From the IMG/VR virus record IMGVR_UViG_3300029705_000009: DNA of 64,000 nt; one strand, written 5' to 3'. Under the pieces are notes generated by a model that had not been told where the DNA came from, searched no databases, and worked only from the letters and a program-made list of their open reading frames with translations. The DNA is from a virus (Duplodnaviria > Caudoviricetes). This document shows positions 2,346 to 64,000 of this stretch, piece after piece (the first letter of the stretch is position 1; every line of letters starts with the position of its first letter). Made by a program: the position numbers and the translations under genes.

Positions 2346-3051
2346 AATTACTCCTTCAAATTCTCTCTATTCTCCCAAACATAATCCACAAAAATATTCC
2401 AATTCAACATCACCTGATCGTACACATCAATCTTTATTTCATCTGGATTCTTGTTGCCACACCAGGGAGAAATAATAATTTCCCACTCAGCCTTTGACCA
2501 AAAATAATAGCGCAGTTCTCTCTTTAATTGTTCTGCAAACGATTCTTTGTCATTATATTCTTTAATGGCCTCTTCTATATAATATACAAAGCTACCGTGC
2601 TCAAAGATGTTATAAGTTTCTATTTTTTGTTTATTAACATTGTAGTAATATACATTCCATTTCATTAAGCGTCTCCCATATCCCATAGTGCACTTGTACC
2701 TTTTTCAAATCCAAGTTCCGGGATGTCTTTTATGAAAATATAATCGTCATTAATTAGATAACATGGAATACTGAAATGCTCTGGAAAATCATCTTCTTCC
2801 GTAAGAACACAGTGGTTCCACATGCTTCTGCTTTTATAAAATTTACAATCACAACATCTCATTTGATTCCTCTTTCTGCTCTTCTTTGTTGCAGTGTTCG
2901 CACTTATCACTTGTAATAGTTGCACCACATTTAGGACAAGTTGTTTCTCCGTTCAGTACTAAATCATCATGCATTTCTATGTACTCCATGAGTTGTTTAT
3001 GATACTCTTCAAACATTTCTAATGTTACTAATTTCTTTTTATCCATGCACT

Positions 3052-47376: not shown

Positions 47377-47657
47377 TTATTAATTTTACTTTTTTACTAT
47401 TTTCTTTTTAACTTCAAACAATTGTATGTTACAATTTCTGTCTCTACGTATTTCAAGTGTTTTATCATCTATAATTGCTTTTACTATTTCGTCCACCATG
47501 GACAATAATTGATTTTTTAAATCATCACTATTCAAGTAATATCACCTAGTATTCTCTGTTAGATTTCTTTCTTCTCCCTATTAGCCATCCTGTAGCAAAG
47601 GCTACAGCGATGACCAATACAAAAACTCCTAAATTTAAAACAATCATATTATTTTAC

Positions 47658-49271
47658 CTACTGTTCAATAATCTTGAAAGATACGTCAGTACGTCTATTC
47701 ATTGCTCTATGTTCTTCTGTGTCATTATCAACCACAGGATTGCTAGATCCTCTACCAACAGTAACGATTCTGTCAGGAGAAATACCATTCATTACAAAGT
47801 ACTGCTTAACAGCCTCTGCTCTCTGTCCGGAAAGCTTAATGTTATATTCGTCTGTAGGATCAGATACTGGATTAGGATCAGTGTTACCAGCAATTTCAAT
47901 AATAGATCCATCCAGAACCTTAGCCACTTCAATAAATTCGTCAAGTTCCTGAGATGCAGAAGCAGAATCAGAGAACTTAGCAGTATTTACTACAAATGTT
48001 ACAGAAGCAGACTTAGTAAGAAGGGATGTAGCATCTAATACTTCCTGTTTGTTATCTTCTGTTACAACAACCTTATTTGTATCAACGGATGTTTCAGTAG
48101 AACTAAAATCACTTGCAATATTATTAATATAAGTATCATCAAAAAGTGTATCTACAACACTAGCATTTACAGTTTCACCAAGAGATGTCCAGATTTCACA
48201 CATATCAGTAAAAATGGTTTTTGCAGTACCATTTAATAAATTGCTGTTATCTTTCCAGGTAGTCAACTTAGCGGAAGCACAGTTTGCAACAATGTCTTCA
48301 TTGGATGCAGTTGAAAACATAGGCATTACACTTCTAATGGCATCAAAGTCGGTGTCATACAGTTCAGAAGCCATTAACGCACCTTTAATAAACTTTTCTA
48401 CTACCTCAGCATTATTCTTTACAAACTCTTCGTTGAATAAGATACCATCCATTACAAGGCTAGAAGAACTTGCAGTACTAAAGAAAATGTGTGCATCGGT
48501 CATGTTCTGAGCCTGGGTTAAATAAGGTTCCCATGTAGCTGCTACATCAACCTCTCCTGCGAAGAAAGCCTTTGCTGCTTCATCAGGAGTCGCAAAGAAG
48601 ATCAGATTGTTCATAATTGCATCTTTCTCTTCCTGAGTTAAATCAGACTGCTGTACAAACCACGCTACAAGAGTGTGTGCTTCGGAGAACTGAGGAACAC
48701 CGATTTTTGCTCCAACTAAATCAGTTACAGTCTGGATGCTGGAGTGTGCAATAATTCCATCGCCACCGTTAGAATAATTAGTGATAAAAGGCATAACAAT
48801 GTCTACACCAGCCTCAGAAAACTTCTGAGATAAGAAAGCAGTTCTGTTAATTGTATAACCGGCAGCATCAAGATCTCCCTTAATAATAGCATTAGAACTC
48901 TGAGTTGCATCGTTGATTACACTAATATTCACATTGATACCAAGTTCGTCATAAATTCCATATTTCTCAGCATCAAGAATTGACTTCCAACCAATCCATT
49001 CATCAAGGGACAAATTAATGGTATTAGCTTCTGTTTTCTCAATGTTCATTACATTACCATTCTCATCATACTCCGGCAAATTGTCTGTATTTTGAGTAGT
49101 GTTATTAATAACCTCTTCTGTCTTGTTATTAACAACACCTGTGTTCTTCTTGTCATCAGAAGTCTTGATAATGCCAGTCTTTACACCGGCAAACACTCCT
49201 CCTCCAACAAGAGCTAAGATTACAACTAAAATTAATACTTTTGCTGCTTTTGTTAATCTAAATCTTCTCAT
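47658..49271 (-). CDS. ABC substrate-binding protein (NMT1/SsuA-like) fused to a C-terminal OmpA-like peptidoglycan-binding domain
   Basis: N-terminal TM segment; S.GGDGII, DVAATWEP; IAGNTD...N..LS..RAEAVK...NRRTD. Confidence 0.85.
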   Translation of the reverse strand: MRRFRLTKAAKVLILVVILALVGGGVFAGVKTGIIKTSDDKKNTGVVNNKTEEVINNTTQNTDNLPEYDENGNVMNIEKTEANTINLSLDEWIGWKSILDAEKYGIYDELGINVNISVINDATQSSNAIIKGDLDAAGYTINRTAFLSQKFSEAGVDIVMPFITNYSNGGDGIIAHSSIQTVTDLVGAKIGVPQFSEAHTLVAWFVQQSDLTQEEKDAIMNNLIFFATPDEAAKAFFAGEVDVAATWEPYLTQAQNMTDAHIFFSTASSSSLVMDGILFNEEFVKNNAEVVEKFIKGALMASELYDTDFDAIRSVMPMFSTASNEDIVANCASAKLTTWKDNSNLLNGTAKTIFTDMCEIWTSLGETVNASVVDTLFDDTYINNIASDFSSTETSVDTNKVVVTEDNKQEVLDATSLLTKSASVTFVVNTAKFSDSASASQELDEFIEVAKVLDGSIIEIAGNTDPNPVSDPTDEYNIKLSGQRAEAVKQYFVMNGISPDRIVTVGRGSSNPVVDNDTEEHRAMNRRTDVSFKIIEQ

Positions 49272-49312
49272 TAAATTACATTCTCCCTTATTATTTTATT
49301 TACTCTCCGAAA

Positions 49313-50050
49313 CTATTTATTATATTTCTTCTTCAAAGAACTTAAATAGTCATCACTCTGAAGCTTTTTAGCAGCTTCATCTGCTCTCTGCACCTTAGTG
49401 GAGGTTCTATTCTCATGAATTACTCTAGCACCGGCAACAGAAGCATTCAAATTGTCATTCTTCTCTTTAATAGAATCCAGAAGTTTATCTGTAGCAGTAA
49501 CATTCTTGAGGTCATCCATACTGTCATAAACCTCATTAAGCTGTGCTTTTACTTTCATGTTCTCTACAACTTCTTTGGATTCTCTCTTCAGCTTACGAAG
49601 TGCAATGCCACAAGCCTTATGTACTTCTTCTGCATCTGCTCTAGCAACAGTATAAGCTTCAATCAGTTTGTTACTTCTTTCGATGTCAGAAATAATCTCT
49701 GCTCTCTCTTCTGCTTTTACCTGTGCCATTTCCATTTTGCCAGCTTGAACTAATGCTTCACACTTAGCTTCAACATCCTTTAACTGTTTCTGCAAGTTTT
49801 TGTTACGGCTAGTTTCAACTTCAAGTTTACCAGCTGCAATTCTTAATGCATTATCTGCTTTGTTGTACTTATCCTGTGCTTCATTAATCTTCTCTGCATA
49901 GATAGCTTCTGCTCCTTCCGGAGTTGTTGCCATGTCTTTAATAAAAACACGAGTCCAACCAAGACAGAGCTTACGAAACTCAGGGAACAATACTAATAAT
50001 GCAACAAACAGTACAAGAGCGATAATTACTAACAAAGTTCCCAAATCCAT
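49313..50050 (-). CDS. PspA/IM30-like coiled-coil membrane protein
   Basis: N-terminal TM segment followed by a long coiled coil. Confidence 0.55.
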   Translation of the reverse strand: MDLGTLLVIIALVLFVALLVLFPEFRKLCLGWTRVFIKDMATTPEGAEAIYAEKINEAQDKYNKADNALRIAAGKLEVETSRNKNLQKQLKDVEAKCEALVQAGKMEMAQVKAEERAEIISDIERSNKLIEAYTVARADAEEVHKACGIALRKLKRESKEVVENMKVKAQLNEVYDSMDDLKNVTATDKLLDSIKEKNDNLNASVAGARVIHENRTSTKVQRADEAAKKLQSDDYLSSLKKKYNK

Positions 50051-50580
50051 TACTTCTCACCTCCAACAAAAGCAACAAGATCCGCAATTCTCTTCAGTTC
50101 AACCTCAACCTTGTCTTCTGTACTATCAATAATGGCTTCTCTATTTGCATTATCTTTTTCAAGTTCCTGGATTTCTCTCTTCTTCTGTTCAATAATGGCA
50201 TTATTATCAGCAATAGCATTCTTATTGTCTGCAACAATTGCATTCAGAGCAGAACGAACAACGGTTTCTCTGGAATATCCATCACTTAAAACCTCATCTA
50301 CTGTGAGTCCAAAACTAGACAGAATAGATAAAACGGTAGCCTTTTTGGTGTCTTTGGGCATCTCCTTGGGGAGAGAATTAACAAGCTCTTCTACCTTAAA
50401 GATTGATTTTGACAAATCAGATAATTCATTCTGACCATAAATATCTTCGATCAGATTATCCTGAGATACATCCTCCGTATTAACTTCTACTTCTGCGATT
50501 TCTTCTTCTGCATAAAGTTCTTCGTCAAAGAACTCTTCTTCCTTAATCTCTTCTACTAAAAATTTCTTTAAAAATCCCAT
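50050..50580 (-). CDS. Acidic coiled-coil hypothetical protein
   Basis: Translationally coupled within the ABC operon. Confidence 0.6.
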   Translation of the reverse strand: MGFLKKFLVEEIKEEEFFDEELYAEEEIAEVEVNTEDVSQDNLIEDIYGQNELSDLSKSIFKVEELVNSLPKEMPKDTKKATVLSILSSFGLTVDEVLSDGYSRETVVRSALNAIVADNKNAIADNNAIIEQKKREIQELEKDNANREAIIDSTEDKVEVELKRIADLVAFVGGEK

Positions 50581-50591
50581 TTGTTCCTCCT

Positions 50592-51209
50592 TTAAAAGTT
50601 TAAAATTTCGTCACACATTTTATTTGCTTCATCTTTGCTATGTGTGACCATAATAATTGTATTATGGGTTTGTTTGTGTATATCAAGGATTAATTGCTGC
50701 ATATCTGTTCTAGTCTTTTCATCTAAAGCAGAAAGAGGTTCATCCATTAATATTATTGATGGTTTCATATATAAAGTACGTGCCAAGGCCAATCTTTGCC
50801 TCATGCCACCGGAAAGTTGCTTTGGATATTTGTCTGCATAATCTTGTAATCCTACTCTTTCCAACCACTTCATGGCATTCTCACGAACTTCATTGGTGAT
50901 TCTTTTGTGATTTATCCTTTCAACAATTAATATATTGTCCAAACAAGTCAACCAGTCAAAAGAAGTGTAATTCTGATGCATCATATAGACATCATTCTTA
51001 CTTGCTCTTTGAAGGGTTTTATCGTCAATAAATATCTCTCCATTAAGTGGATAAATCAAACCGGCAATAGTTTTCAGTAAAGTGGATTTTCCACAACCGG
51101 ATTCTCCTAAAATTCCGTAAATCTTGTTGTCTTCGAATATGTAAGAGAGATTAGATTTTAAAGGCTTATCTCTACTATAACCTGTTGTGATGTCATTCAA
51201 TCGAATCAT
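50592..51209 (-). CDS. ABC transporter ATP-binding protein (NitT/TauT type)
   Basis: GESGCGKST, LSGGMRQR, LMDEPLSALD, VTH. Confidence 0.95.
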   Translation of the reverse strand: MIRLNDITTGYSRDKPLKSNLSYIFEDNKIYGILGESGCGKSTLLKTIAGLIYPLNGEIFIDDKTLQRASKNDVYMMHQNYTSFDWLTCLDNILIVERINHKRITNEVRENAMKWLERVGLQDYADKYPKQLSGGMRQRLALARTLYMKPSIILMDEPLSALDEKTRTDMQQLILDIHKQTHNTIIMVTHSKDEANKMCDEILNF

Positions 51210-51948
51210 TTATATACCTCCATTTAAAACACTTCCTAATCAACAATTTAGCAATGTTATCAAACAAAAAACTGATGATCATAATTGAAATAATTCCAAG
51301 AAATACCAAATCAGTCTTTCCTCTAGAAGATGATTGCTGAATCATGTAACCAAGTCCGTATTTTGCGTTAATACTTTCAACCACGGCACAATAGGTGAAG
51401 CCTATTCCGAAGCACATTACAAAGCTATTTAAAATACTTGGTAACATAGCCGGTAATTGTATTCTTACGATTGCTTGCAATCTACTCATTCCAATTGTAT
51501 ATCCGGTTTCGATTAGATCCTGGTTAATTTCCTCTAATGAATTTACTACTGAAGGCATCATATACACAAAACATGCAATGAAAAGAAACGCAATTTTCAT
51601 TTTCTCTTCAATACCTAACCACAAAATTAATAATGGATAAAATGCAGTTACTGGAACATATCGCATAAGACTGACAATAGGATTAACCGAATACTTTATA
51701 ATCTTAAAATTGTATACCAATAACCCTAACGGCAAAGCAACAAGACCAGATAATACTGAAGAAATCAATATTCTTCTAAATGTATATAGAATTGCGATTT
51801 GCAATTGTCCTGTAGATATAAGTGTTTTAGCATCTTCCAATACCACTAATGGATTTGGAATAAATAGCGAATTTGAATTTAAAGAAGCAAAATACCATAT
51901 TAATATAACAATTAAAAATGTTATTAAAGTAATCAGTTTATTTTTCAT
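51193..51948 (-). CDS. ABC transporter permease (NitT/TauT type)
   Basis: Multi-pass membrane protein; P..A..PL.ILW.G, EAA-like LIETGYTIG, GLGYMI. Confidence 0.9.
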   Translation of the reverse strand: MKNKLITLITFLIVILIWYFASLNSNSLFIPNPLVVLEDAKTLISTGQLQIAILYTFRRILISSVLSGLVALPLGLLVYNFKIIKYSVNPIVSLMRYVPVTAFYPLLILWLGIEEKMKIAFLFIACFVYMMPSVVNSLEEINQDLIETGYTIGMSRLQAIVRIQLPAMLPSILNSFVMCFGIGFTYCAVVESINAKYGLGYMIQQSSSRGKTDLVFLGIISIMIISFLFDNIAKLLIRKCFKWRYINDSIE

Positions 51949-52653: not shown

Positions 52654-52726
52654 TTCTGATGGTAGGACTCGAACCTACGACGCGAGGAATTTACCGGCTC
52701 TGCTCTCCCAGCTGAGCTACATCAGA
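52654..52726 (-). ncRNA. tRNA-like RNA with a broken anticodon arm
   Basis: Intact acceptor, D and T arms (TAGCTCAG..GAGC; GGTTCGAGTCC); anticodon stem only 3 bp and no U33. Confidence 0.65.
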
Positions 52727-53232
52727 ACTTTTAAATTACATTTGACTACTCATGCAGTACTTCATGCCCGCACCCACCTATGTCTCCCACACACAACCTC
52801 GTCAAATGTTGTTTTTAAATGGTTTAATCGACCTCACCACAAACGGAGTTGTCCATCAACTCACATGGAACAGTTTTACCAGTTTTCTTTTTGGACGACT
52901 ATTACGTATGTCCTCCAACTGCCAAGTCGATTTTTTACATGCATGACCTACTAATCTGCAGCTAAGTAGGATTATGTTCAACACTTTATCGAAAGCCTGA
53001 ATCATTTTACTGAAAACGCTATTTTGACTCTGTTGCAAAATAGTAACGGTCAAGTGATAAGTCACTACCTCTGTTCTTTTCTCCACCAATTTACAGTAAG
53101 GAGTGTGTTTCCTTTTGAAACTTCTCAAAAGTCACTTCAGTGTCCGTTGCCGACCCTATTTTCTTTTTGAATTAAGGATAAGTCACTTCAGTAGAAAACC
53201 TTAGCTATCAGTTTTCTTATGCTGTTGCCCAA

Positions 53233-53306
53233 GTTCGCAACCAGGGGATGAACCTAGATTTCTTTCTTTGATCAGGAGAAAGCGTTTTGTCTTAAACTAC
53301 TGCGAA
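53233..53306 (-). ncRNA. tRNA-like RNA, Ile(GAT)-like with a 9-nt loop and short D loop
   Basis: TTCGCAG/TTGCGAA acceptor; CTTTCT-CCTGATCAA-AGAAAG; CTAGG-TTCATCC-CCTGG. Confidence 0.5.
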
Positions 53307-53348: not shown

Positions 53349-53428
53349 CGGCAGTCTCCGGAATCGAACCAGTAATTGTATCTGCTTTTTATTGTCCAGA
53401 TATTGCTTTGCCATTAAGCTAAACTGCC
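53349..53428 (-). ncRNA. tRNA-like RNA with an expanded anticodon loop
   Basis: GGCAGTT/GACTGCC acceptor, D arm, GGTTCGATTCC T arm; TATCTG-12 nt-CAGATA arm. Confidence 0.6.
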
Positions 53429-53698: not shown

Positions 53699-53771
53699 TG
53701 GAGCGCCTGGGATTCGAACCCAGAACCGTCCGGTTATGAGCCGGATGCACTAACCGTTGTGCTAACGCTCC
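53699..53771 (-). tRNA. tRNA with CAT anticodon (Ile2-like or Met)
   Basis: Canonical cloverleaf; TCCGG-CTCATAA-CCGGA. Confidence 0.9.
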
Positions 53772-53803: not shown

Positions 53804-53913
53804 GAGACTTTAATTATGAAAGAAATTTTGGTGGAATTTTGAAATGCTGTCGAATCGAACGACAAGAAAAACTTTTGCAGAGTTTTGAATTTAAAATTGC
53901 TGTAAGAGATCTC
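53804..53913 (-). ncRNA. ACAGCAA-module RNA joined to the 3' half of a tRNA-Cys
   Basis: TTACAGCAATTT, AAAACT-CTGCAAA-AGTTTT, TGTCG-TTCGATT-CGACA. Confidence 0.6.
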
Positions 53914-53962
53914 CACCCTTATCTCCTATAATTCTGTCACCAGACGCCTTTCGTATTTATTC

Positions 53963-54022
53963 TAGGCACGTTTACATTATTGATTAACAGTCAATTGTAT
54001 TTATATTTGCTGCATGTGCCTA
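53963..54022 (-). ncRNA. Module RNA with an Asn(GTT) anticodon stem-loop mimic
   Basis: TAGGCAC/GTGCCTA closing stem, ATGCAGCAAAT, ATTGA-CTGTTAA-TCAAT. Confidence 0.7.
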
Positions 54023-54028
54023 TATTGC

Positions 54029-54205
54029 TAGATACCATATATCAGAGTTTACTTAAATTTGCACCAAGCTACAGATTCGAACTGCCATCTTCTCCTTTAA
54101 AGGGAGACGTAATATTCTTGCGAATGCGCTTTGCCCTATTATACTATCTCGGTGGTTTCCTCATCATACTTTTTTACGCATTATTTATATCGCTGTTGGT
54201 ATCTA
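54029..54205 (-). ncRNA. Module RNA enclosing a tRNA-like domain (54062-54153) with TTA anticodon
   Basis: TAGATACC/GGTATCTA closing stem, AACAGCGAT; TCTCC-CTTTAAA-GGAGA; TTCGAAT T loop. Confidence 0.6.
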
Positions 54206-54220
54206 TTTAATTTTATTTAG

Positions 54221-55771
54221 TTATACAATGTCTTTAACGGCATCCTCTACTACTTGGTATCTTTCGGAGTTAAGCTGTTCAACCAAACATTCAAACGGAT
54301 CGAGCTTTCCACTAAGTACCATCTTGCAGATAGCAGGGCTAAAACCAGACACTAACGCTACTGGGAAGTTTTCGTGCCGATTTACAGGCAAGGTACCGGT
54401 TCTACTACAAATGTTCCAGAATACAACACGAGGCATTTTGTAACCAGCATTAGTCCATTTCTGTTCAATTTCTCTGAATAAAGTATTTTTTACTCCCCAT
54501 CCACCACTATTATCTATTGCACATGAATCGAATTCCATATCTGATAAAATAAGAACATTTGTAGGAATATCTTCTTGGCTCATTTTCTTGCTAACGGCAG
54601 TCTTGAGTAATAAATCAAACACAGCTTCAATATTGGTATTGGCCACCTCATTATATCTAAGTGCAATCGCAATCTTTTCTCTTAAAGTCTTAGCTTGAGA
54701 AAAGTCTACTAATTGAGGTCTATGGCTAAAAGTAATGTAATTGTTCTTAAACTCTCCATTACTATGCTCTGCAAAATAAATTGCTAAAGCATTTGCAACA
54801 TCAAGACATGTCACATTGGTTCCACCAACTGTACTTTTCATACTTCCGGAGCCATCAGCAACACAAATCGTGTTTCCCTGACCCTTTACAAAGTCAGGAA
54901 GTGCTTTCCATAACTGCTCCAATGTAGTATCTACACCAGATTTTAAATATTGACCATAACCAGAACCAGTCATATAACTATGAACAATATCATGAGGGAA
55001 GTTAACAGAACTGTTAATCTTTACACCTTCATCTCCACGCTCTAAAGCTGCCAGATAAGCTCTACGTCTCTCTTCATCATTTCTTAAGAAAGCTCCATTG
55101 TAAATCAGATTCGCTCTTGAAGGTACTGTGTTATAGTCGATTTCACTCCACTCTTTCGCAGACATTTTAACTTCTACAACATTAAGATACTTACGAAGAG
55201 AAGAAAGTGTCTTTCGATAATTTCTCTCTGTCATATTAAGACCGGAATAAAGAATCCTTGCAAGTCTTCTGTTTCCCTTTGAGGAGCAATTAGTACTAGG
55301 CATCCATTTTGCCAAGAGTGAAATAGGCTTGTTTTCCATCTGATTAGCGCAGTCTTCCTCAAGCTGCATTGCAACCCAGGCTATAACATCTTCACGAAGT
55401 TTTGTATCAAGCAGACACCACATATCATCTACACGGCCATATTCCGGTGCTAAGCTAAACACTGCCTTTGCAATCTCAGGTTGTTCTGTTGCCAACCATT
55501 TCAGACACACTCTAAACAATCTTCTTTCGCCAATGCCTTCTCTTGCATCTCTGCAATAGAATAACCACTTTACGGCAAGCAGCTTGTCTTCATAGAAAGC
55601 CTTAGCAAAAGCATCTTCAATTGCTTTATCACTCTTATTTCTGAAAGATGTTACACCGAAATTAATATCTAACAGCTTTCTTCCGGATGTGCCAAATCCT
55701 AACGCTCCATTTTCTGTAATGGAAAAGCTATTCTGATCTAGTGTTGTTTTTAAATTATTCATAAAACTCAT
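54221..55771 (-). CDS. DUF2828-family helical + vWA protein (Ro60/TROVE-like architecture by inference); start reassigned to MSFMNN
   Basis: RDAREGIGERRLFR, SLLAKWMPS, YRK.L...V.E.KM, DGSGSM (MIDAS), LSDMEFD, VFWN; AAGGAG RBS before ATG 55771. Confidence 0.85.
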   Translation of the reverse strand: MSFMNNLKTTLDQNSFSITENGALGFGTSGRKLLDINFGVTSFRNKSDKAIEDAFAKAFYEDKLLAVKWLFYCRDAREGIGERRLFRVCLKWLATEQPEIAKAVFSLAPEYGRVDDMWCLLDTKLREDVIAWVAMQLEEDCANQMENKPISLLAKWMPSTNCSSKGNRRLARILYSGLNMTERNYRKTLSSLRKYLNVVEVKMSAKEWSEIDYNTVPSRANLIYNGAFLRNDEERRRAYLAALERGDEGVKINSSVNFPHDIVHSYMTGSGYGQYLKSGVDTTLEQLWKALPDFVKGQGNTICVADGSGSMKSTVGGTNVTCLDVANALAIYFAEHSNGEFKNNYITFSHRPQLVDFSQAKTLREKIAIALRYNEVANTNIEAVFDLLLKTAVSKKMSQEDIPTNVLILSDMEFDSCAIDNSGGWGVKNTLFREIEQKWTNAGYKMPRVVFWNICSRTGTLPVNRHENFPVALVSGFSPAICKMVLSGKLDPFECLVEQLNSERYQVVEDAVKDIV

Positions 55772-55816
55772 TTCTTTTTCTCCTTTTTGAATAGTTTTAT
55801 TTGCTTTAACTATTCC

Positions 55817-55868
55817 AAGATACATTTGATAGATTTGCAGTCTAATTTTTATTTGCTGTTAGTATCTT
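55817..55868 (-). ncRNA. Module RNA with a Cys(GCA) anticodon stem-loop mimic
   Basis: AAGATAC/GTATCTT, TAACAGCAAAT, TAGA-CTGCAAA-TCTA. Confidence 0.7.
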
Positions 55869-55880
55869 AGAAATTAATAA

Positions 55881-55998
55881 GCGGAGAGTGTGGGACTCGA
55901 ACCCACGACAACAGGCTCCCTAAGCAATATAAAATTGCAGTATAAGTCTTTCTCAAGACTCGTTTTTTTCTGTGCTCTACCAACTGAGCTAACCTCCG
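55881..55998 (-). tRNA. tRNA-Pro(AGG)-like gene with a 44-nt insertion (55926-55969)
   Basis: CGG start, D and T arms; removing the insert gives CAGGC-TTAGGGA-GCCTG. Confidence 0.75.
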
Positions 55999-56003
55999 CA
56001 TAT

Positions 56004-56121
56004 CAGAGAGGGTAAGATTCGAACTTACGACCTACGGGTTAACAGCCATTGTAAAATTGCAGTTTAAGTCTTTGACAAGACCCGATTATTACGTTGCTCT
56101 ATCCAGCTGAGCTACCTCTCT
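56004..56121 (-). tRNA. tRNA-Asn(GTT) gene with a 44-nt insertion (56048-56091)
   Basis: Perfect acceptor, D and T arms, G73; removing the insert gives ACGGG-CTGTTAA-CCCGT. Confidence 0.8.
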
Positions 56122-56124
56122 GAG

Positions 56125-56251
56125 TGGGGAAAGAATGGATTCGAACCATCGAAGCATAATGCGAGAGATTTACAGTCTTCACAAATTGCAGTTAATGTCT
56201 AACTAGACATGTTCTCCGTTCTCTTGGGTTTGTCCACTTCCCTATTTCCCC
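56125..56251 (-). tRNA. tRNA-Tyr(GTA) gene with a 44-nt insertion (56178-56221)
   Basis: Tyr-type D arm and long variable arm; removing the insert gives AGAGA-CTGTAAA-TCTCT. Confidence 0.8.
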
Positions 56252-56264
56252 ATATTTAGTTTTC

Positions 56265-56327
56265 TAGTCGCCATAAAAACTTATCAGATCCCTAATCAGA
56301 TGTTTTTAATGTTGCTGTAAGCGACTA
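56265..56327 (-). ncRNA. Module RNA with a Pro(AGG)-like anticodon loop
   Basis: TAGTCGC/GCGACTA, TTACAGCAAC, ATCTGA-TTAGGGA-TCTGAT. Confidence 0.65.
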
Positions 56328-56330
56328 ACT

Positions 56331-56387
56331 AGATGCTTTTGAATTACAATTTAAAAGATTGTTCCAATAAAATTGCTGTATGCATCT
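56331..56387 (-). ncRNA. Module RNA with a Lys(TTT) anticodon stem-loop mimic
   Basis: AGATGC/GCATCT, ATACAGCAATTT, ACAAT-CTTTTAA-ATTGT. Confidence 0.7.
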
Positions 56388-56389
56388 GA

Positions 56390-56502
56390 AGACGTGAGAC
56401 GGAGTTGAACCATCATCTGTGCCTTGGCTTCCTTTAATTTGCTGTTTGAGTTAAACTAAACTCTTTATTCGGAGCACCGTGCTACCATTGCACCATCACG
56501 CC
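56390..56502 (-). ncRNA. tRNA-Gly(GCC)-like RNA with a ~42-nt module insertion
   Basis: GGCGTGA/TCACGTC acceptor, D and T arms; insert hairpin plus AAACAGCAAAT before GCCAA. Confidence 0.65.
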
Positions 56503-56507
56503 ATATC

Positions 56508-56582
56508 AAAGCGGTTTGAGGTATTGTCGTTTTCCTCTCATTAATGTTTTCTGGAGACAAAATATCTTGCTGTAACCGCTTT
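56508..56582 (-). ncRNA. Module RNA with no clear anticodon loop
   Basis: AAAGCGG/CCGCTTT, TTACAGCAAG, inner TTGTC/GACAA stem. Confidence 0.55.
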
Positions 56583-56589
56583 TAATTAC

Positions 56590-56655
56590 TAGACAGATTA
56601 AAATATATAATATGTATTCTGGCATATATTCTTTAAATGTTGCTACTTCTGTCTA
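56590..56655 (-). ncRNA. Module RNA with a variant motif
   Basis: TAGACAG/CTGTCTA, AAGTAGCAAC, inner ATATG/CATAT hairpin. Confidence 0.5.
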
Positions 56656-56657
56656 AA

Positions 56658-56729
56658 CAGGGCTAGCTGGATTCGAACCAGCGACTGCAGCAGTCAAAGT
56701 GCTGTGCCTTACCGCTTGGCGATAGCCCT
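56658..56729 (-). tRNA. tRNA-Gln(TTG)
   Basis: Canonical cloverleaf; CAGCA-CTTTGAC-TGCTG. Confidence 0.93.
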
Positions 56730-56927
56730 ATAAATTCTGGTGGTTCTTTTACATCTACCACCAAAGATGTATCATAAGAAAGGAGGTACGTTTGCAAGAA
56801 GCAAACCAAACTTTAGGAATATGTCGTAATAATAGGCTTTTATTGCACACTTTCGTTTTTGTGTGTAATTTTATTTACCTACGATTGTTTTTTTGAGGAC
56901 TTAATGTCCTCAATCTCAACTGTACTT

Positions 56928-57049
56928 AGTCTACCATACTATGCAATAATTGTCAATACACTTTTTGATATTTAATTTTATTTACCTATTACCAAAAAAA
57001 AATAATTTCCTGATGAAACTATACTACCACGGCTAACACATATTGTCAA
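56928..57049 (-). promoter_or_regulatory. Two tandem SigA-type promoters upstream of the ncRNA island
   Basis: TTGACA-17-TAGTAT (57049-57021) and TTGACA-17-TAGACT (56956-56928), both with TG extension. Confidence 0.7.
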
Positions 57050-62821: not shown

Positions 62822-64000
62822 TTAATCTCCTATCATTTTCAAAAAGTCCTGCTCAGATATGATTTTAACACCTAGGCCTTTTGCCTTAGAATTTTTTGAT
62901 GAATTACTATTAACATCGTTATTCACCAGGTATGAAGTTTTAGCACTTACAGATCCACTTACCTTACCTCCAAGGTTCAAAATCTTTTCTGTAAGTTCTT
63001 CTCGATTCTTAAAATGTTCCAAAGAACCTGTAATAACAAATGTTTTCCCAGCCAATATACTCGTTTGCATATTATTTTGCTTACTTATTCCGGTTTCAAA
63101 ATTAAATTCCCTTTTCAGTTCCAAGAACTCAATCCAATGAGCATCACGCCAACTTATTAACGACTTGTACATTGTTTCACCAAACCCCTCAATTTCTAAA
63201 AACTTTCTTGCAGCTCCGAAAGATATGATTTGACAGAATGTATCAATATTTCCCTTACAAAGTTTAGAAATATCCTTACTTGCTGTTCTTCCAATTAATG
63301 GAATGCTCTGGGCATACAAGAATCTCTCAAGATTAGTATTTTTACTCTTAGCAATGTTCTCAAGCAACTTTAATACGCTCTTCTCTCCGAAGCCAGGTTC
63401 CTTTGTCCATTCGTTTTTATATATATCTAAACTGTAAATATCCTTTAATGATTTAATCCAACCTTTTGATAATAAAAATTCTAATGTTGCAGATGACATA
63501 TCCTCAATATTCAAGGCCTGCTTGCTACAAGCGTGTTCTAACTTAGATAACAGCTTAGCTTGGCAATCAGGATTAATACAATGAAGTGTTTTGCTTCCGT
63601 TTTCGTTGTGGATTTCTGTTGGCTCACCACAGCAAGGACATTTATCTGGATATGTCCAGGTATTACTTCTGGTTAAATTGTCATGAACCTTGGGAATTAC
63701 CATATTGGCACGGTACACAGAAATAGTATCGCCAATACCCAATTCTAAATTTTCAATATAAGAAATATTATGTAACGTTGCTTTGGTTGTTAATGCTCCA
63801 TCCAAATCAACCGGCTCAAATATCGCTACTGGATTAATTAACCCAGTTCGAGTAGTATTCCACTCAATGTTTGTAAGAACAGTTTCGCTTGTATCGTCTT
63901 TCCATTTCCTCGCCAACATATTAAGAGGATGATGCTCCGTACTACCAAGAGATTTTCCATATTCATAGGAATTATATTTATATATAGTTCCATCCACAGG
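62822..64000 (-). CDS. ligA: NAD-dependent DNA ligase (5' part outside the window)
   Basis: RTGLINPVA, ATLHN, RANMVIP, C4 zinc finger, HhH (GFGEKS), BRCT domain (GKTFVITGSL...SVSAKT.YLV). Confidence 0.93.
   Translation of the reverse strand, partial: PVDGTIYKYNSYEYGKSLGSTEHHPLNMLARKWKDDTSETVLTNIEWNTTRTGLINPVAIFEPVDLDGALTTKATLHNISYIENLELGIGDTISVYRANMVIPKVHDNLTRSNTWTYPDKCPCCGEPTEIHNENGSKTLHCINPDCQAKLLSKLEHACSKQALNIEDMSSATLEFLLSKGWIKSLKDIYSLDIYKNEWTKEPGFGEKSVLKLLENIAKSKNTNLERFLYAQSIPLIGRTASKDISKLCKGNIDTFCQIISFGAARKFLEIEGFGETMYKSLISWRDAHWIEFLELKREFNFETGISKQNNMQTSILAGKTFVITGSLEHFKNREELTEKILNLGGKVSGSVSAKTSYLVNNDVNSNSSKNSKAKGLGVKIISEQDFLKMIGD

Follow-up and report, generated by a model that had tools for sequence, protein, structure and literature searches.

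A phage locus that probably encodes a Ro60-like ribonucleoprotein: a DUF2828 protein gene within an array of tRNA-mimicking RNAs that share one handle

We analyzed a 64,000-nt stretch of DNA (hereafter the window) of a virus of the class Caudoviricetes, IMG/VR record IMGVR_UViG_3300029705_000009. An island on its minus strand (53829-56655) carried 12 RNA units with one common module, placed on both sides of a gene for a 516-aa protein of the DUF2828/DUF7788 type. With a probability of roughly 0.6, we propose that this locus encodes a ribonucleoprotein (RNP) of the Ro60/Y-RNA type, in which a paralogue of Ro60 would be accompanied by its own partner RNA family, the tRNA mimics serving as decoys or adaptors. 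The common module (the handle) consisted of a 7-bp helix P1, two variable nucleotides, the sequence A-C-W-G-C-A-A, an A/U-rich linker, and a G directly after the 3' arm. The outer pairs of P1 were conserved (5' WAGR...YCUW 3'), while its inner pairs covaried. The module was found in three settings: in mini RNAs of 50-75 nt, with larger tRNA-like cargos, and as a permuted insert in four tRNAs.

Units were searched for with a script that required a CWGCAA-like motif, 3 nt, and a 7-nt arm with a perfect partner. Eleven units were found within 53963-56655 on the minus strand, and two further units, a Lys unit with a 6-bp helix (56330-56388) and a hybrid unit (53829-53917), were added by eye. Under this lax rule, the other 61 kb of the minus strand contained about 17 scattered matches, most of them long-range, and the plus strand contained 16. 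The motif RCWGCRA was present in 75 copies in the window versus 45 +/- 6 in shuffled sequences; 12 minus-strand copies fell within about 1.25 kb of non-coding DNA beside the gene. Two covariance models were built from the units, R1 matching the mini units and R2 the insert-type handle, and their matches in the window at E<0.01 were restricted to 53962-56655 of the minus strand.

A sequence-only reading of the window had described about 12 minus-strand units of helix and motif flanking the gene; the script and the covariance models agree with it, with nine units before the gene and three after it, and all helices and loops that it had quoted are present in the sequence. It had also taken all units for small RNAs displaying anticodon loops. 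This stands for the mini units with Asn, Cys, Lys, and Pro loops; four units, however, are inserts inside full tRNA genes, recognized by Rfam or by eye, and the hairpins of two others (56507-56582 and 56589-56655) are not anticodon-like. The RNA family had not been recognized in that reading, and indeed no Rfam 15 family matches the module: searches at the gathering threshold (window and 30 related loci) and at E<=1 and E<=10 (island) returned only tRNA, transfer-messenger RNA (tmRNA), wcaG, and sub-threshold YrlA.

The proposal of a common RNA module was borne out by covariation tests on both the insert-type and the mini units. In 28 insert-type handles from 12 loci, P1 was 91% paired versus 72% in shuffles, and its covariation score was 0.63, compared with 0.26 for shuffled sequences and 0.07-0.21 when the partner columns were slid. 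In 21 mini units, P1 and the inner 5-bp stem were 97% paired, with a covariation score of 0.74 versus 0.25, and double substitutions occurred at 5/5 pairs of the inner stem. The latter test is not circular, because the inner hairpin was not used in finding the units. Among 83 mini units, the sequence A-C-A-G-C-A-A was near-invariant and the 3' G was present in 83/83; the outer three pairs of P1 were nearly fixed, while the inner pairs varied freely.

These substitutions bear on the possibility of a small selfish element of DNA or RNA, in which case the handle would spread in tRNA islands and have no function for the phage. Such an element would account for the many copies per genome, for the insertion in tRNA genes, and for the homing-endonuclease genes that lie near in some relatives. 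However, the copies are not repeats: P1 differs from copy to copy with compensatory substitution, which points to selection on RNA structure. The cargo loops, moreover, obey anticodon rules, and the family is kept across very distant phages together with one protein, so that we find a selfish element hardly credible. A CRISPR-like (clustered regularly interspaced short palindromic repeat) array was rejected, as all stems differ; repeats resembling miniature inverted-repeat transposable elements were rejected as well.

The mini units had the order P1a, motif, linker, 5-bp hairpin with a 7-nt loop, second linker, P1b, and G. Sixty-two seven-nt loops were present in the 83 mini units; U33 was found in 54/62 of them, a purine at position 37 in 62/62, and A38 in 59/62. 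Since they obey the U33, purine-37, and A38 rules, the mini-unit loops are mimics of anticodon loops. In related phages the loops were exchanged on a constant scaffold: one orthologous tRNA body had the Pro loop ATTGGGG in locus L003 and the Thr loop ATTGTAA in L004 and L005, and another had Cys, Trp, or Tyr loops across L003, L004, and L007. Such swaps would fit display better than decoding. Together with the mini units, which cannot be charged, and with the A34 of the Pro-like loops, they favor an anticodon arm that is presented to some partner over one that works on the ribosome; A34 is unusual for bacterial decoding. The point at which the handle joined the tRNA cargo was the anticodon end in the YrlA-like units, the acceptor end in L033 5813-5927, and the interior of the anticodon stem in the inserts; these varied attachment points suggest a portable protein-binding tag rather than a structural part of tRNA.

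The inserts were analyzed in the complete tRNA genes of the island. Three tRNAs of 113-118 nt were found by the Rfam tRNA model, and the fourth, tRNA-Tyr, was read by eye. The four insert-bearing genes (Asn, Pro, Tyr, and Gly-like) had inserts of 42-44 nt, and in the Asn, Pro, and Tyr genes the insert of 44 nt interrupted the anticodon stem in its 5' strand, at 29/30. Its order was P1b, a short loop starting with a conserved G, P1a, NN, ACTGCAA, and linker, which is a circular permutation of the mini-unit handle, closed as a hairpin. The Rfam-found genes scored 35-47 bits versus a threshold of 29, and RNAalifold recovered the acceptor, D, and T arms of the cloverleaf; the split anticodon stem was not recovered. 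A continuous 5-bp anticodon stem with a 7-nt loop was absent from the gene products and became canonical only after hypothetical excision of the insert, never for 56390-56502. The junctions were judged by an explicit stem/loop test; ARAGORN run on all possible excisions was too permissive to fix them.

Restoration upon excision is what would be expected of true tRNA introns. The handle would then be a splicing signal, an endonuclease of the phage or the host would cut at a fixed distance from P1, and a phage ligase (RtcB or Rnl, with Tpt1) would join the exons; DUF2828 would be a splicing cofactor or ruler, and the mini units derived or regulatory copies. Indeed, a perfect 5-bp stem and 7-nt loop is restored in the Asn, Pro, and Tyr genes of the window and in Pro, Arg, Thr, and Lys genes of other loci, the insert length is tightly fixed (44 nt in three genes here and 39-41 nt in a cyanophage-like clade), the 5' junction between ACG and TAA is conserved, tRNA-Tyr retains its long variable arm and A73, and relatives encode RtcB, Tpt1, RNA ligase, and kinase in the neighborhood of the array. 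However, no endonuclease is conserved with the system, DUF2828 being its sole widely shared protein. There is no group I core and, in the RNAalifold consensus, no helix joining the junctions, hence no bulge-helix-bulge. The handle also closes RNAs that have no route to a tRNA, namely the mini units and the permuted domains; inserts are found at different sites (26/27, 28/29, 29/30, and after 31), and no excision gives the Gly-like tRNA a normal loop. Anticodons are exchanged between orthologous bodies whose acceptor and discriminator do not change accordingly, and A34 is present in the Pro-like loops. We consider true introns quite unlikely. Two known intron types were rejected individually: 44 nt is far too short for the core of a group I intron, and no intron family appeared in the Rfam searches; a bulge-helix-bulge intron would have two 3-nt bulges flanking a 4-bp helix at the junctions, whereas the consensus fold had only the P1 hairpin inside the insert.

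The gene in the center of the array (54221-55771, minus strand) encoded a Ro60-like protein with DUF2828 and DUF7788/vWA domains. Its true start is probably 55771 rather than 55825, giving the 516 aa of the database copy; the upstream ATG at 55825 would give 534 aa. Pfam gave DUF7788 at 1e-43 and DUF2828 at 3e-32, and the DxSxS motif of the metal-ion-dependent adhesion site (MIDAS) was invariant in the alignment of homologues. A phmmer search of the protein against PDB sequences returned nothing. An AlphaFold (AF2) model built on a 20-sequence alignment (predicted local distance difference test 81, predicted template modeling score 0.74) had a HEAT-repeat ring followed by a vWA domain with MIDAS, the fold of Ro60/TROVE proteins. 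Its best 13 PDB matches were all Ro60/TROVE chains, aligned over the full length (513-569 columns) with E-values of 1e-7 to 1e-4 and a template modeling score of about 0.5 (0.4-0.58). They included Ro60 of Thermus phage phiLo, Xenopus and human Ro60, and Deinococcus Rsr; isolated vWA domains ranked next. The Ro60-like character that had been proposed for the protein was thus confirmed at the level of the predicted fold, and, judging from the model, the protein is a structural paralogue of Ro60 and not an orthologue. The DUF2828 family had at least 6,400 homologues at E<=1e-5 among a maximum of 8,000 scored candidates, and copies in 704 cultured phage records; for some phages the protein is annotated in GenBank as 'Ro-like RNA binding protein' or 'putative ribonucleoprotein'.

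Handle and protein were found together from either side. All 16 loci fetched by protein homology (37-89% identity, including cyanophage-like contigs that carry cyanobacterial tmRNA) had 3-12 units on the strand of the gene, and every Rfam-found 'tRNA' of 113-128 nt in them held the handle. In 49 loci from bacterial assemblies, all 45 mini-unit matches at E<1e-3 were on the strand of the gene, and the opposite strand had none. In the reverse direction, a search with a 17-base pattern of the handle yielded 58 viral loci, nearly all with bona fide units; the protein was encoded within the stored flank in 19 of them, and in five other pattern-found records searched whole it was encoded elsewhere in 4/5, including 3/3 complete genomes. 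The handle adjoins the gene in Campylobacter phage CP81, Mycobacterium phage Samty, Bacillus phage MrDarsey, Enterococcus phage EfV12-phi1, and Escherichia phage JH2, and searches of the whole JH2, Samty, and MrDarsey genomes with the models gave matches beside the gene only. Phages T4 and T5, which have tRNA clusters and were the only two negative controls, contained neither handle RNA nor DUF2828. The co-occurrence with DUF2828, on which the sequence-only reading had made its proposal depend, is thus seen whether the search starts from the protein or from the RNA, and both controls agree with it. Clustering of open reading frames (ORFs) from about 60 loci left DUF2828 as the sole widely shared protein; no second conserved protein partner was found in these loci, the next clusters being structural or unknown lineage-specific genes.

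Genes of RNA repair were present near the array in some relatives, namely RtcB, Tpt1, RNA ligase, Thg1, and KTI12/AAA_33 kinase. A Tpt1/KptA RNA 2'-phosphotransferase (L009 1341-1871; Pfam 1e-47) was encoded directly upstream of the array on a 171-kb contig, and an RtcB ligase (L080 5733-7052) was encoded 1.2 kb downstream of the DUF2828 gene of a Listeria phage. These genes suggest that the same RNP might work as a platform for RNA repair or quality control, the ring holding broken or misfolded tRNAs and the cargo recruiting tRNA enzymes such as ligases, kinases, Thg1-like or modification enzymes, or PNPase. Such a role accords with Ro60/Rsr biology and with the precedent of the Salmonella rsr-yrlBA-rtcBA operon, induced by damaged tRNAs (PMC4201824, PMC7790460), and in a survey of jumbo phages, ROT/TROVE proteins are grouped with those of RNA repair (PMC7824862); the closest relatives encode RNA ligase, Thg1, and a KTI12-like kinase. 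However, no repair enzyme was consistently linked to the system, none was found near the array in the 64-kb window, and bare anticodon arms devoid of acceptor and T arms would be poor mimics for most tRNA-repair enzymes. A repair platform therefore seems unlikely to us.

The arrangement of the units also permits another explanation, in which the handle serves the processing, stability, or punctuation of polycistronic tRNA-island transcripts and is read by host RNases or by a phage nuclease, and the protein merely shares the operon. The units, spaced 1-20 nt apart, must be cut from a precursor; a 7-bp P1 with one unpaired G resembles an acceptor stem with its discriminator, and at L033 5813-5927 P1 substitutes for the acceptor stem of a cloverleaf. 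However, the outer P1 pairs and the G are kept inside tRNAs, where P1 is closed by a loop and has no ends to process, and the tRNA clusters of T4 and T5 are devoid of the element. Furthermore, it tracks DUF2828 in phages whose hosts (Actinobacteria, Firmicutes, Campylobacter, Enterobacteria, and cyanobacteria-like ones) have different RNases. A mere processing element is, in our estimation, very unlikely.

In the proposed Ro60/Y-RNA-type particle, each RNA would combine a constant handle with a variable cargo derived from tRNA. The cargo would range from a bare look-alike of an anticodon arm, through an anticodon arm joined to a T arm, to an entire tRNA-like domain, which in some relatives has the permuted order of YrlA. 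In four genes the relation would be reversed, the handle being permuted into a hairpin and grafted into the anticodon stem of a complete tRNA. The units would be cut from a precursor into separate RNAs, and the protein ring would bind the handle, with P1 on its surface and the ACWGCAA strand possibly in the cavity. Binding of handles would load the protein with a set of tRNA or anticodon mimics, and these may act as decoys or adaptors toward readers of the anticodon arm, among which anticodon nucleases of the host and enzymes of tRNA repair are the most plausible. The most economical roles would be that of a decoy or blocker of anticodon nucleases, or that of an adaptor bringing tRNA enzymes to the ring; Y RNA is known to tether PNPase to Rsr. 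As a bolder and rather tentative extension, phages of many bacterial phyla might carry a programmable decoy particle, in which a Ro60-like ring with a universal handle and a changeable library of anticodon mimics (Lys and Asn being the commonest, with loops exchanged among close relatives) would trap or block host anticodon nucleases, and the handle of the eukaryotic Class I RNAs (compared below) would belong to an ancient handle/protein pair common to viruses and eukaryotes.

Several results weigh against a particle of the Ro60/Y-RNA type. The partnership of protein and handle is a candidate one, based on sequence comparison and on a structural model. Pfam TROVE (PF05731) did not match the protein, and vWA_Ro60 scored 18.5 bits, under its cutoff of 27.7. 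The Rfam YrlA model gave at best 24-28 bits versus a threshold of 69, with no gathering-threshold match in 30 loci; unlike YrlA, the handle is P1 with NN-ACWGCAA and a 3' G and not a GNCGAAN0-1G helix (PMC4201824). Single-sequence fold energies were only modestly better than those of shuffles (z -0.6 to -3.1), so that the support for RNA structure is comparative rather than thermodynamic. On some contigs, units were also found at kilobase distances from the gene. Not all cargos resemble tRNA (exceptions are 56507-56655 and the units of Felixounavirus JH2), and the anticodons displayed, led by Lys(UUU) with 23 and Asn(GUU) with 10, form a tally biased by the model seed. Finally, the insert-bearing tRNA-Tyr keeps its long variable arm with A73 and tRNA-Asn keeps G73, features that would fit real spliced tRNAs too.

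All units of the array are on the minus strand, and they are described here in the order of the strand. A mini unit at 56589-56655 had P1 TAGACAG/CTGTCTA and the variant motif AAGTAGCAA (script; R1 33.4 bits, E 2.6e-5). Its cargo was an imperfect hairpin with no likeness to an anticodon arm, and homologues were present at L014 2199-2267 and L010 2078-2146. It was followed by a mini unit with a long-hairpin cargo at 56507-56582, P1 AAAGCGG/CCGCTTT and TTACAGCAA (script; R1 22.4 bits, E 0.013), which was kept at L010 2155-2226. The Gly-like tRNA body at 56390-56502 (Rfam tRNA 44.5 bits, counting 48 inserted nt; R2 32 bits) had intact acceptor, D, and T arms and an insert of about 42-48 nt in the region of the anticodon loop. 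The permuted handle in this insert, GAGTT/AACTC with AAACAGCAA, was located at 56431-56468; the residual loop was non-canonical (Gly-GCC-like, no U33), and removal of the insert cannot restore a canonical loop.

The mini unit at 56329-56388 displayed a Lys(UUU) arm, ACAAT CTTTTAA ATTGT, closed by P1 (C)AGATGC/GCATCT(A) (R1 63.7 bits, E 1e-12). The next one, at 56264-56327, had the loop TTAGGGA (Pro-like, AGG) and P1 TAGTCGC/GCGACTA (R1 59.4 bits; fold z-score -3.1). Three insert-bearing tRNA genes followed. The gene of tRNA-Tyr(GTA) with its long variable arm, A73, and 44-nt insert was read by eye at 56125-56251 (R2 35.4 bits at 56178-56213); the insert (about 56178-56221) was located in the 5' strand of the anticodon stem, its handle was ATGTCTA-GT-TAGACAT with TAACTGCAA, and its junction slides by a few nucleotides. 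The gene of tRNA-Asn(GTT) at 56004-56121 (Rfam tRNA 46.8 bits; R2 41.8 bits) had the 44-nt insert at 29/30 (56048-56091) with the handle GGGTCTT-GTCA-AAGACTT and AAACTGCAA, and removal of the insert yields ACGGG/CCCGT with the loop CTGTTAA. The Pro-like (AGG) tRNA gene at 55882-55997 (Rfam tRNA 35.4 bits; R2 42.1 bits) had its 44-nt insert, also at 29/30, at 55926-55969; the handle was GAGTCTT-GAGA-AAGACTT with ATACTGCAA, and removal of the insert yields CAGGC/GCCTG with the loop TTAGGGA. The last unit before the protein gene was a Cys(GCA) mini unit at 55816-55868 (P1 AAGATAC/GTATCTT, loop CTGCAAA; R1 46.4 bits, E 2e-8), located 45 nt upstream of the likely start codon.

Sixteen nucleotides past the stop codon of the protein gene started a large unit (54028-54205, found by the script) with P1 TAGATAC(C)/(G)GTATCTA and AACAGCGA. 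It enclosed a whole tRNA-like domain (54062-54153; Rfam tRNA 35.6 bits) with the anticodon loop CTTTAAA (UUA) and a 23-nt insert in the D loop. The UUA anticodon of this domain would read the stop codon UAA; one in-frame TAA was present in each of the DUF2828 genes of the related contigs L077 and L078, and TAA may be read through or recoded in some of these phages. The Asn(GUU) mini unit at 53962-54022, with the arm ATTGA CTGTTAA TCAAT and P1 TAGGCAC/GTGCCTA, was also matched by R1 (66.1 bits, E 3e-13). The hybrid RNA at 53829-53917 was read by eye and combined an acceptor-like stem GGTGGAG/TTCCACC, a Cys(GCA) anticodon arm, and a T arm. In this RNA TTACAGCAA replaced the D arm and the typical P1 sequence was absent; its membership, on a weak R2 match (20.8 bits, E 0.14), is less certain than that of the other units.

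The window was phage-like with about 34% G+C, and nearly all of its genes were on the minus strand. From about 57.05 to 53.7 kb, the island comprised two promoters, tRNA-Gln, nine units, the 516-aa gene, three units, and tRNA-Met. The promoters (56928-57049, minus strand, facing the array) were near-consensus and of the sigma-70 type, TTGACA-17-TAGTAT and TTGACA-17-TAGACT, both with an extended -10 TG. They were the best-scoring pair of the region, and the overall number of such sites was not above that in shuffles. The array and the Ro60-like gene are probably one transcription unit driven from about 57.0 kb. The tRNA-Gln(TTG) at the head (56657-56730) and the tRNA-Met(CAT) at the tail (53699-53771), both on the minus strand, were ordinary according to ARAGORN and Rfam. 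A near-identity search of the island DNA against 50,697 phage records gave a 75-nt tRNA stretch as the sole match. The database copy of the central protein occurs on contigs of up to 275 kb, so the source is probably a jumbo phage. The nearest relatives of the protein in cellular assemblies (47-64% identity) belong to Lachnospiraceae and other Clostridia, which makes a gut Firmicute the probable host.

Additional features were noted around the array. Three more cloverleafs (52654-52726, 53233-53306, and 53349-53428, minus strand) kept their acceptor, D, and T arms and had abnormal anticodon arms, with an 11-nt loop on a 3-bp stem in the first and a 16-nt loop in the last; the ACAGCAA handle was absent from them. 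The non-coding stretch between these odd tRNAs contained three copies of the short repeat AAGTGACTT(A/T) at 53059-53190 (minus strand). Downstream of the island, an ABC-transporter-like operon, an unusual cargo for a phage, occupied 47546-51948, with the permease (BPD_transp_1) confirmed at 51193-51948. The C-terminal part of an NAD-dependent DNA ligase (OB fold, zinc finger, HhH, BRCT) was encoded at 62822-63997, and the gene runs past the end of the window. In the related cyanophage-like contigs L003, L007, and L008, a permuted cyanobacterial-type tmRNA gene (2540-2791) was located just upstream of the DUF2828 gene and neighbored about 15 tRNAs and a tRNA-Sec-like match. In L003, L004, L005, L007, and L008, a weak handle-like unit AAAGTTA...TGACTTT (2946-3020; E 0.39) covered the ribosome-binding region and start codon of the DUF2828 gene, which would permit autoregulation.

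Ro60 and Y RNAs are conserved from bacteria to humans, and Ro60 with tRNA-mimicking Y RNAs is a known system; the DUF2828 paralogue with its handle, the arrays of anticodon mimics, and the grafting into stems are undescribed in Rfam 15 and in the literature searched. In open-access publications on DUF2828, Ro-like phage proteins, phage anticodon decoys or mimics, and a link between Class I RNAs and Ro60, no description of the RNA family was found. The uncharacterized DUF2828 family thereby gains a candidate RNA partner with a simple, searchable signature. The handle explains many odd 'tRNA-like' genes, 'tRNAs' of 115 nt, and unannotated gaps in phage tRNA islands, and some of the small ORFs called in such islands probably overlap RNA genes. 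Two 'hypothetical protein' ORFs overlapping high-scoring units, gp55 of Mycobacterium phage Samty (L081 4571-4765) and ORF140 of Campylobacter phage CP81 (L085 2867-3004), are probably mis-annotated RNA genes. As the loops mimic specific anticodon arms and change fast from one relative to the next, the system is a strong candidate for a part in the contest of phages with anticodon nucleases, and it may be a widespread relative of the Ro60/Y-RNA particle that helps phages in the fight over tRNAs. It occurs in tractable phage-host pairs, including Felixounavirus with E. coli, cluster phages of M. smegmatis, and Bacillus, Enterococcus, and Campylobacter phages.

Among known systems, tRNA introns (bacterial group I introns in the anticodon loop and archaeal bulge-helix-bulge introns at non-canonical positions) likewise interrupt the anticodon arm, and their excision restores a canonical tRNA; as in such introns, the length of the phage inserts is fixed within a clade. 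In contrast to them, the phage inserts are only 39-44 nt long, have neither a group I core nor a bulge-helix-bulge, and are located in the 5' strand of the stem, and their module also occurs outside tRNAs. A likeness of another kind is that to the tRNAs of phage T5. T5 tRNA-Lys neutralizes PARIS AriB, which recognizes the anticodon stem-loop of tRNA-Lys and cuts between 40 and 41 (PMC11464382), and T5 tRNA-Tyr is cited there as countering retron Eco7 PtuAB (via PMC11464382). The RNAs studied here similarly bear anticodon stem-loops of the kind attacked by defense nucleases, Lys(UUU) being the commonest. T5 tRNAs, however, are complete and functional replacements that decode, whereas most RNAs here can neither be charged nor take part in decoding, and they bear a putative protein-binding handle. 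The AriB cut at 40/41 is opposite the insertion site at 29/30, as 29 pairs with 41 and 30 with 40; this match is a coincidence and not evidence.

The Class I RNAs are RNAs of dictyostelid social amoebae, reportedly treated by Aspegren in 2004. In Dictyostelium they are 42-65 nt long and have a 6-bp terminal stem, a conserved 11-nt motif after the 5' arm, and a variable remainder (PMC7919456), and their many clustered genes have compensatory stem changes (PMC7919456, Kjellin et al. 2021). The mini units of the window agree with this plan, having a short terminal stem, an adjacent 11-nt motif ending in ..UUACAGCAA, and a variable remainder within about 60 nt. In the Class I search pattern GTTGRCCTTACAGCAA...GTCAACTG (PMC5054030), UUACAGCAA is at the same distance from the arm as in TAGTCGC-TTACAGCAA of the phage units. 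In contrast, Class I RNAs are eukaryotic, have their own promoter element, and are reported to be unique to Dictyostelia; their known binder is the RNA-recognition-motif protein Rnp1A, and no tRNA-like cargo has been reported for them. Their termini are 5' G ... CUGU 3', those of the phage units WAG...CUW-G, and the window units matched no Rfam family, including any of Class I type, at E<=10. The likeness may be due to convergence or chance; it is a lead, and the common signature offers a concrete functional hypothesis for the Dictyostelium Class I RNAs.

The closest likeness is to Ro60 with YrlA (RF02553). The partner RNA of bacterial Ro60 (Rsr), YrlA, mimics tRNA and carries the Ro60-binding motif GNCGAAN0-1G (PMC4201824). 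In the phages, the protein belongs to Pfam DUF2828/DUF7788 and not to TROVE, there are up to 12 RNAs per locus rather than one or two, most cargos of the window are bare anticodon arms, and complete tRNAs can bear the handle as a graft in their anticodon stem. As in the Ro60/YrlA system, however, a Ro60-fold protein with a ring and a vWA domain is encoded beside small RNAs on the same strand within a few kb; the RNAs are modular, with a terminal stem bearing a conserved element and a part that mimics tRNA; and the system is sporadically linked to RtcB-type repair genes. The window units themselves contained anticodon arms or unpermuted tRNA bodies and no permuted domain of the YrlA type. In relatives (L001 4755-4872 and 4990-5099, L009 2519-2637, and phage Samty), the handle closed a domain composed of a T arm, a loop-capped acceptor, and a D arm, which is the architecture of YrlA, and these permuted domains are the strongest link between the phage RNAs and the Y RNAs.

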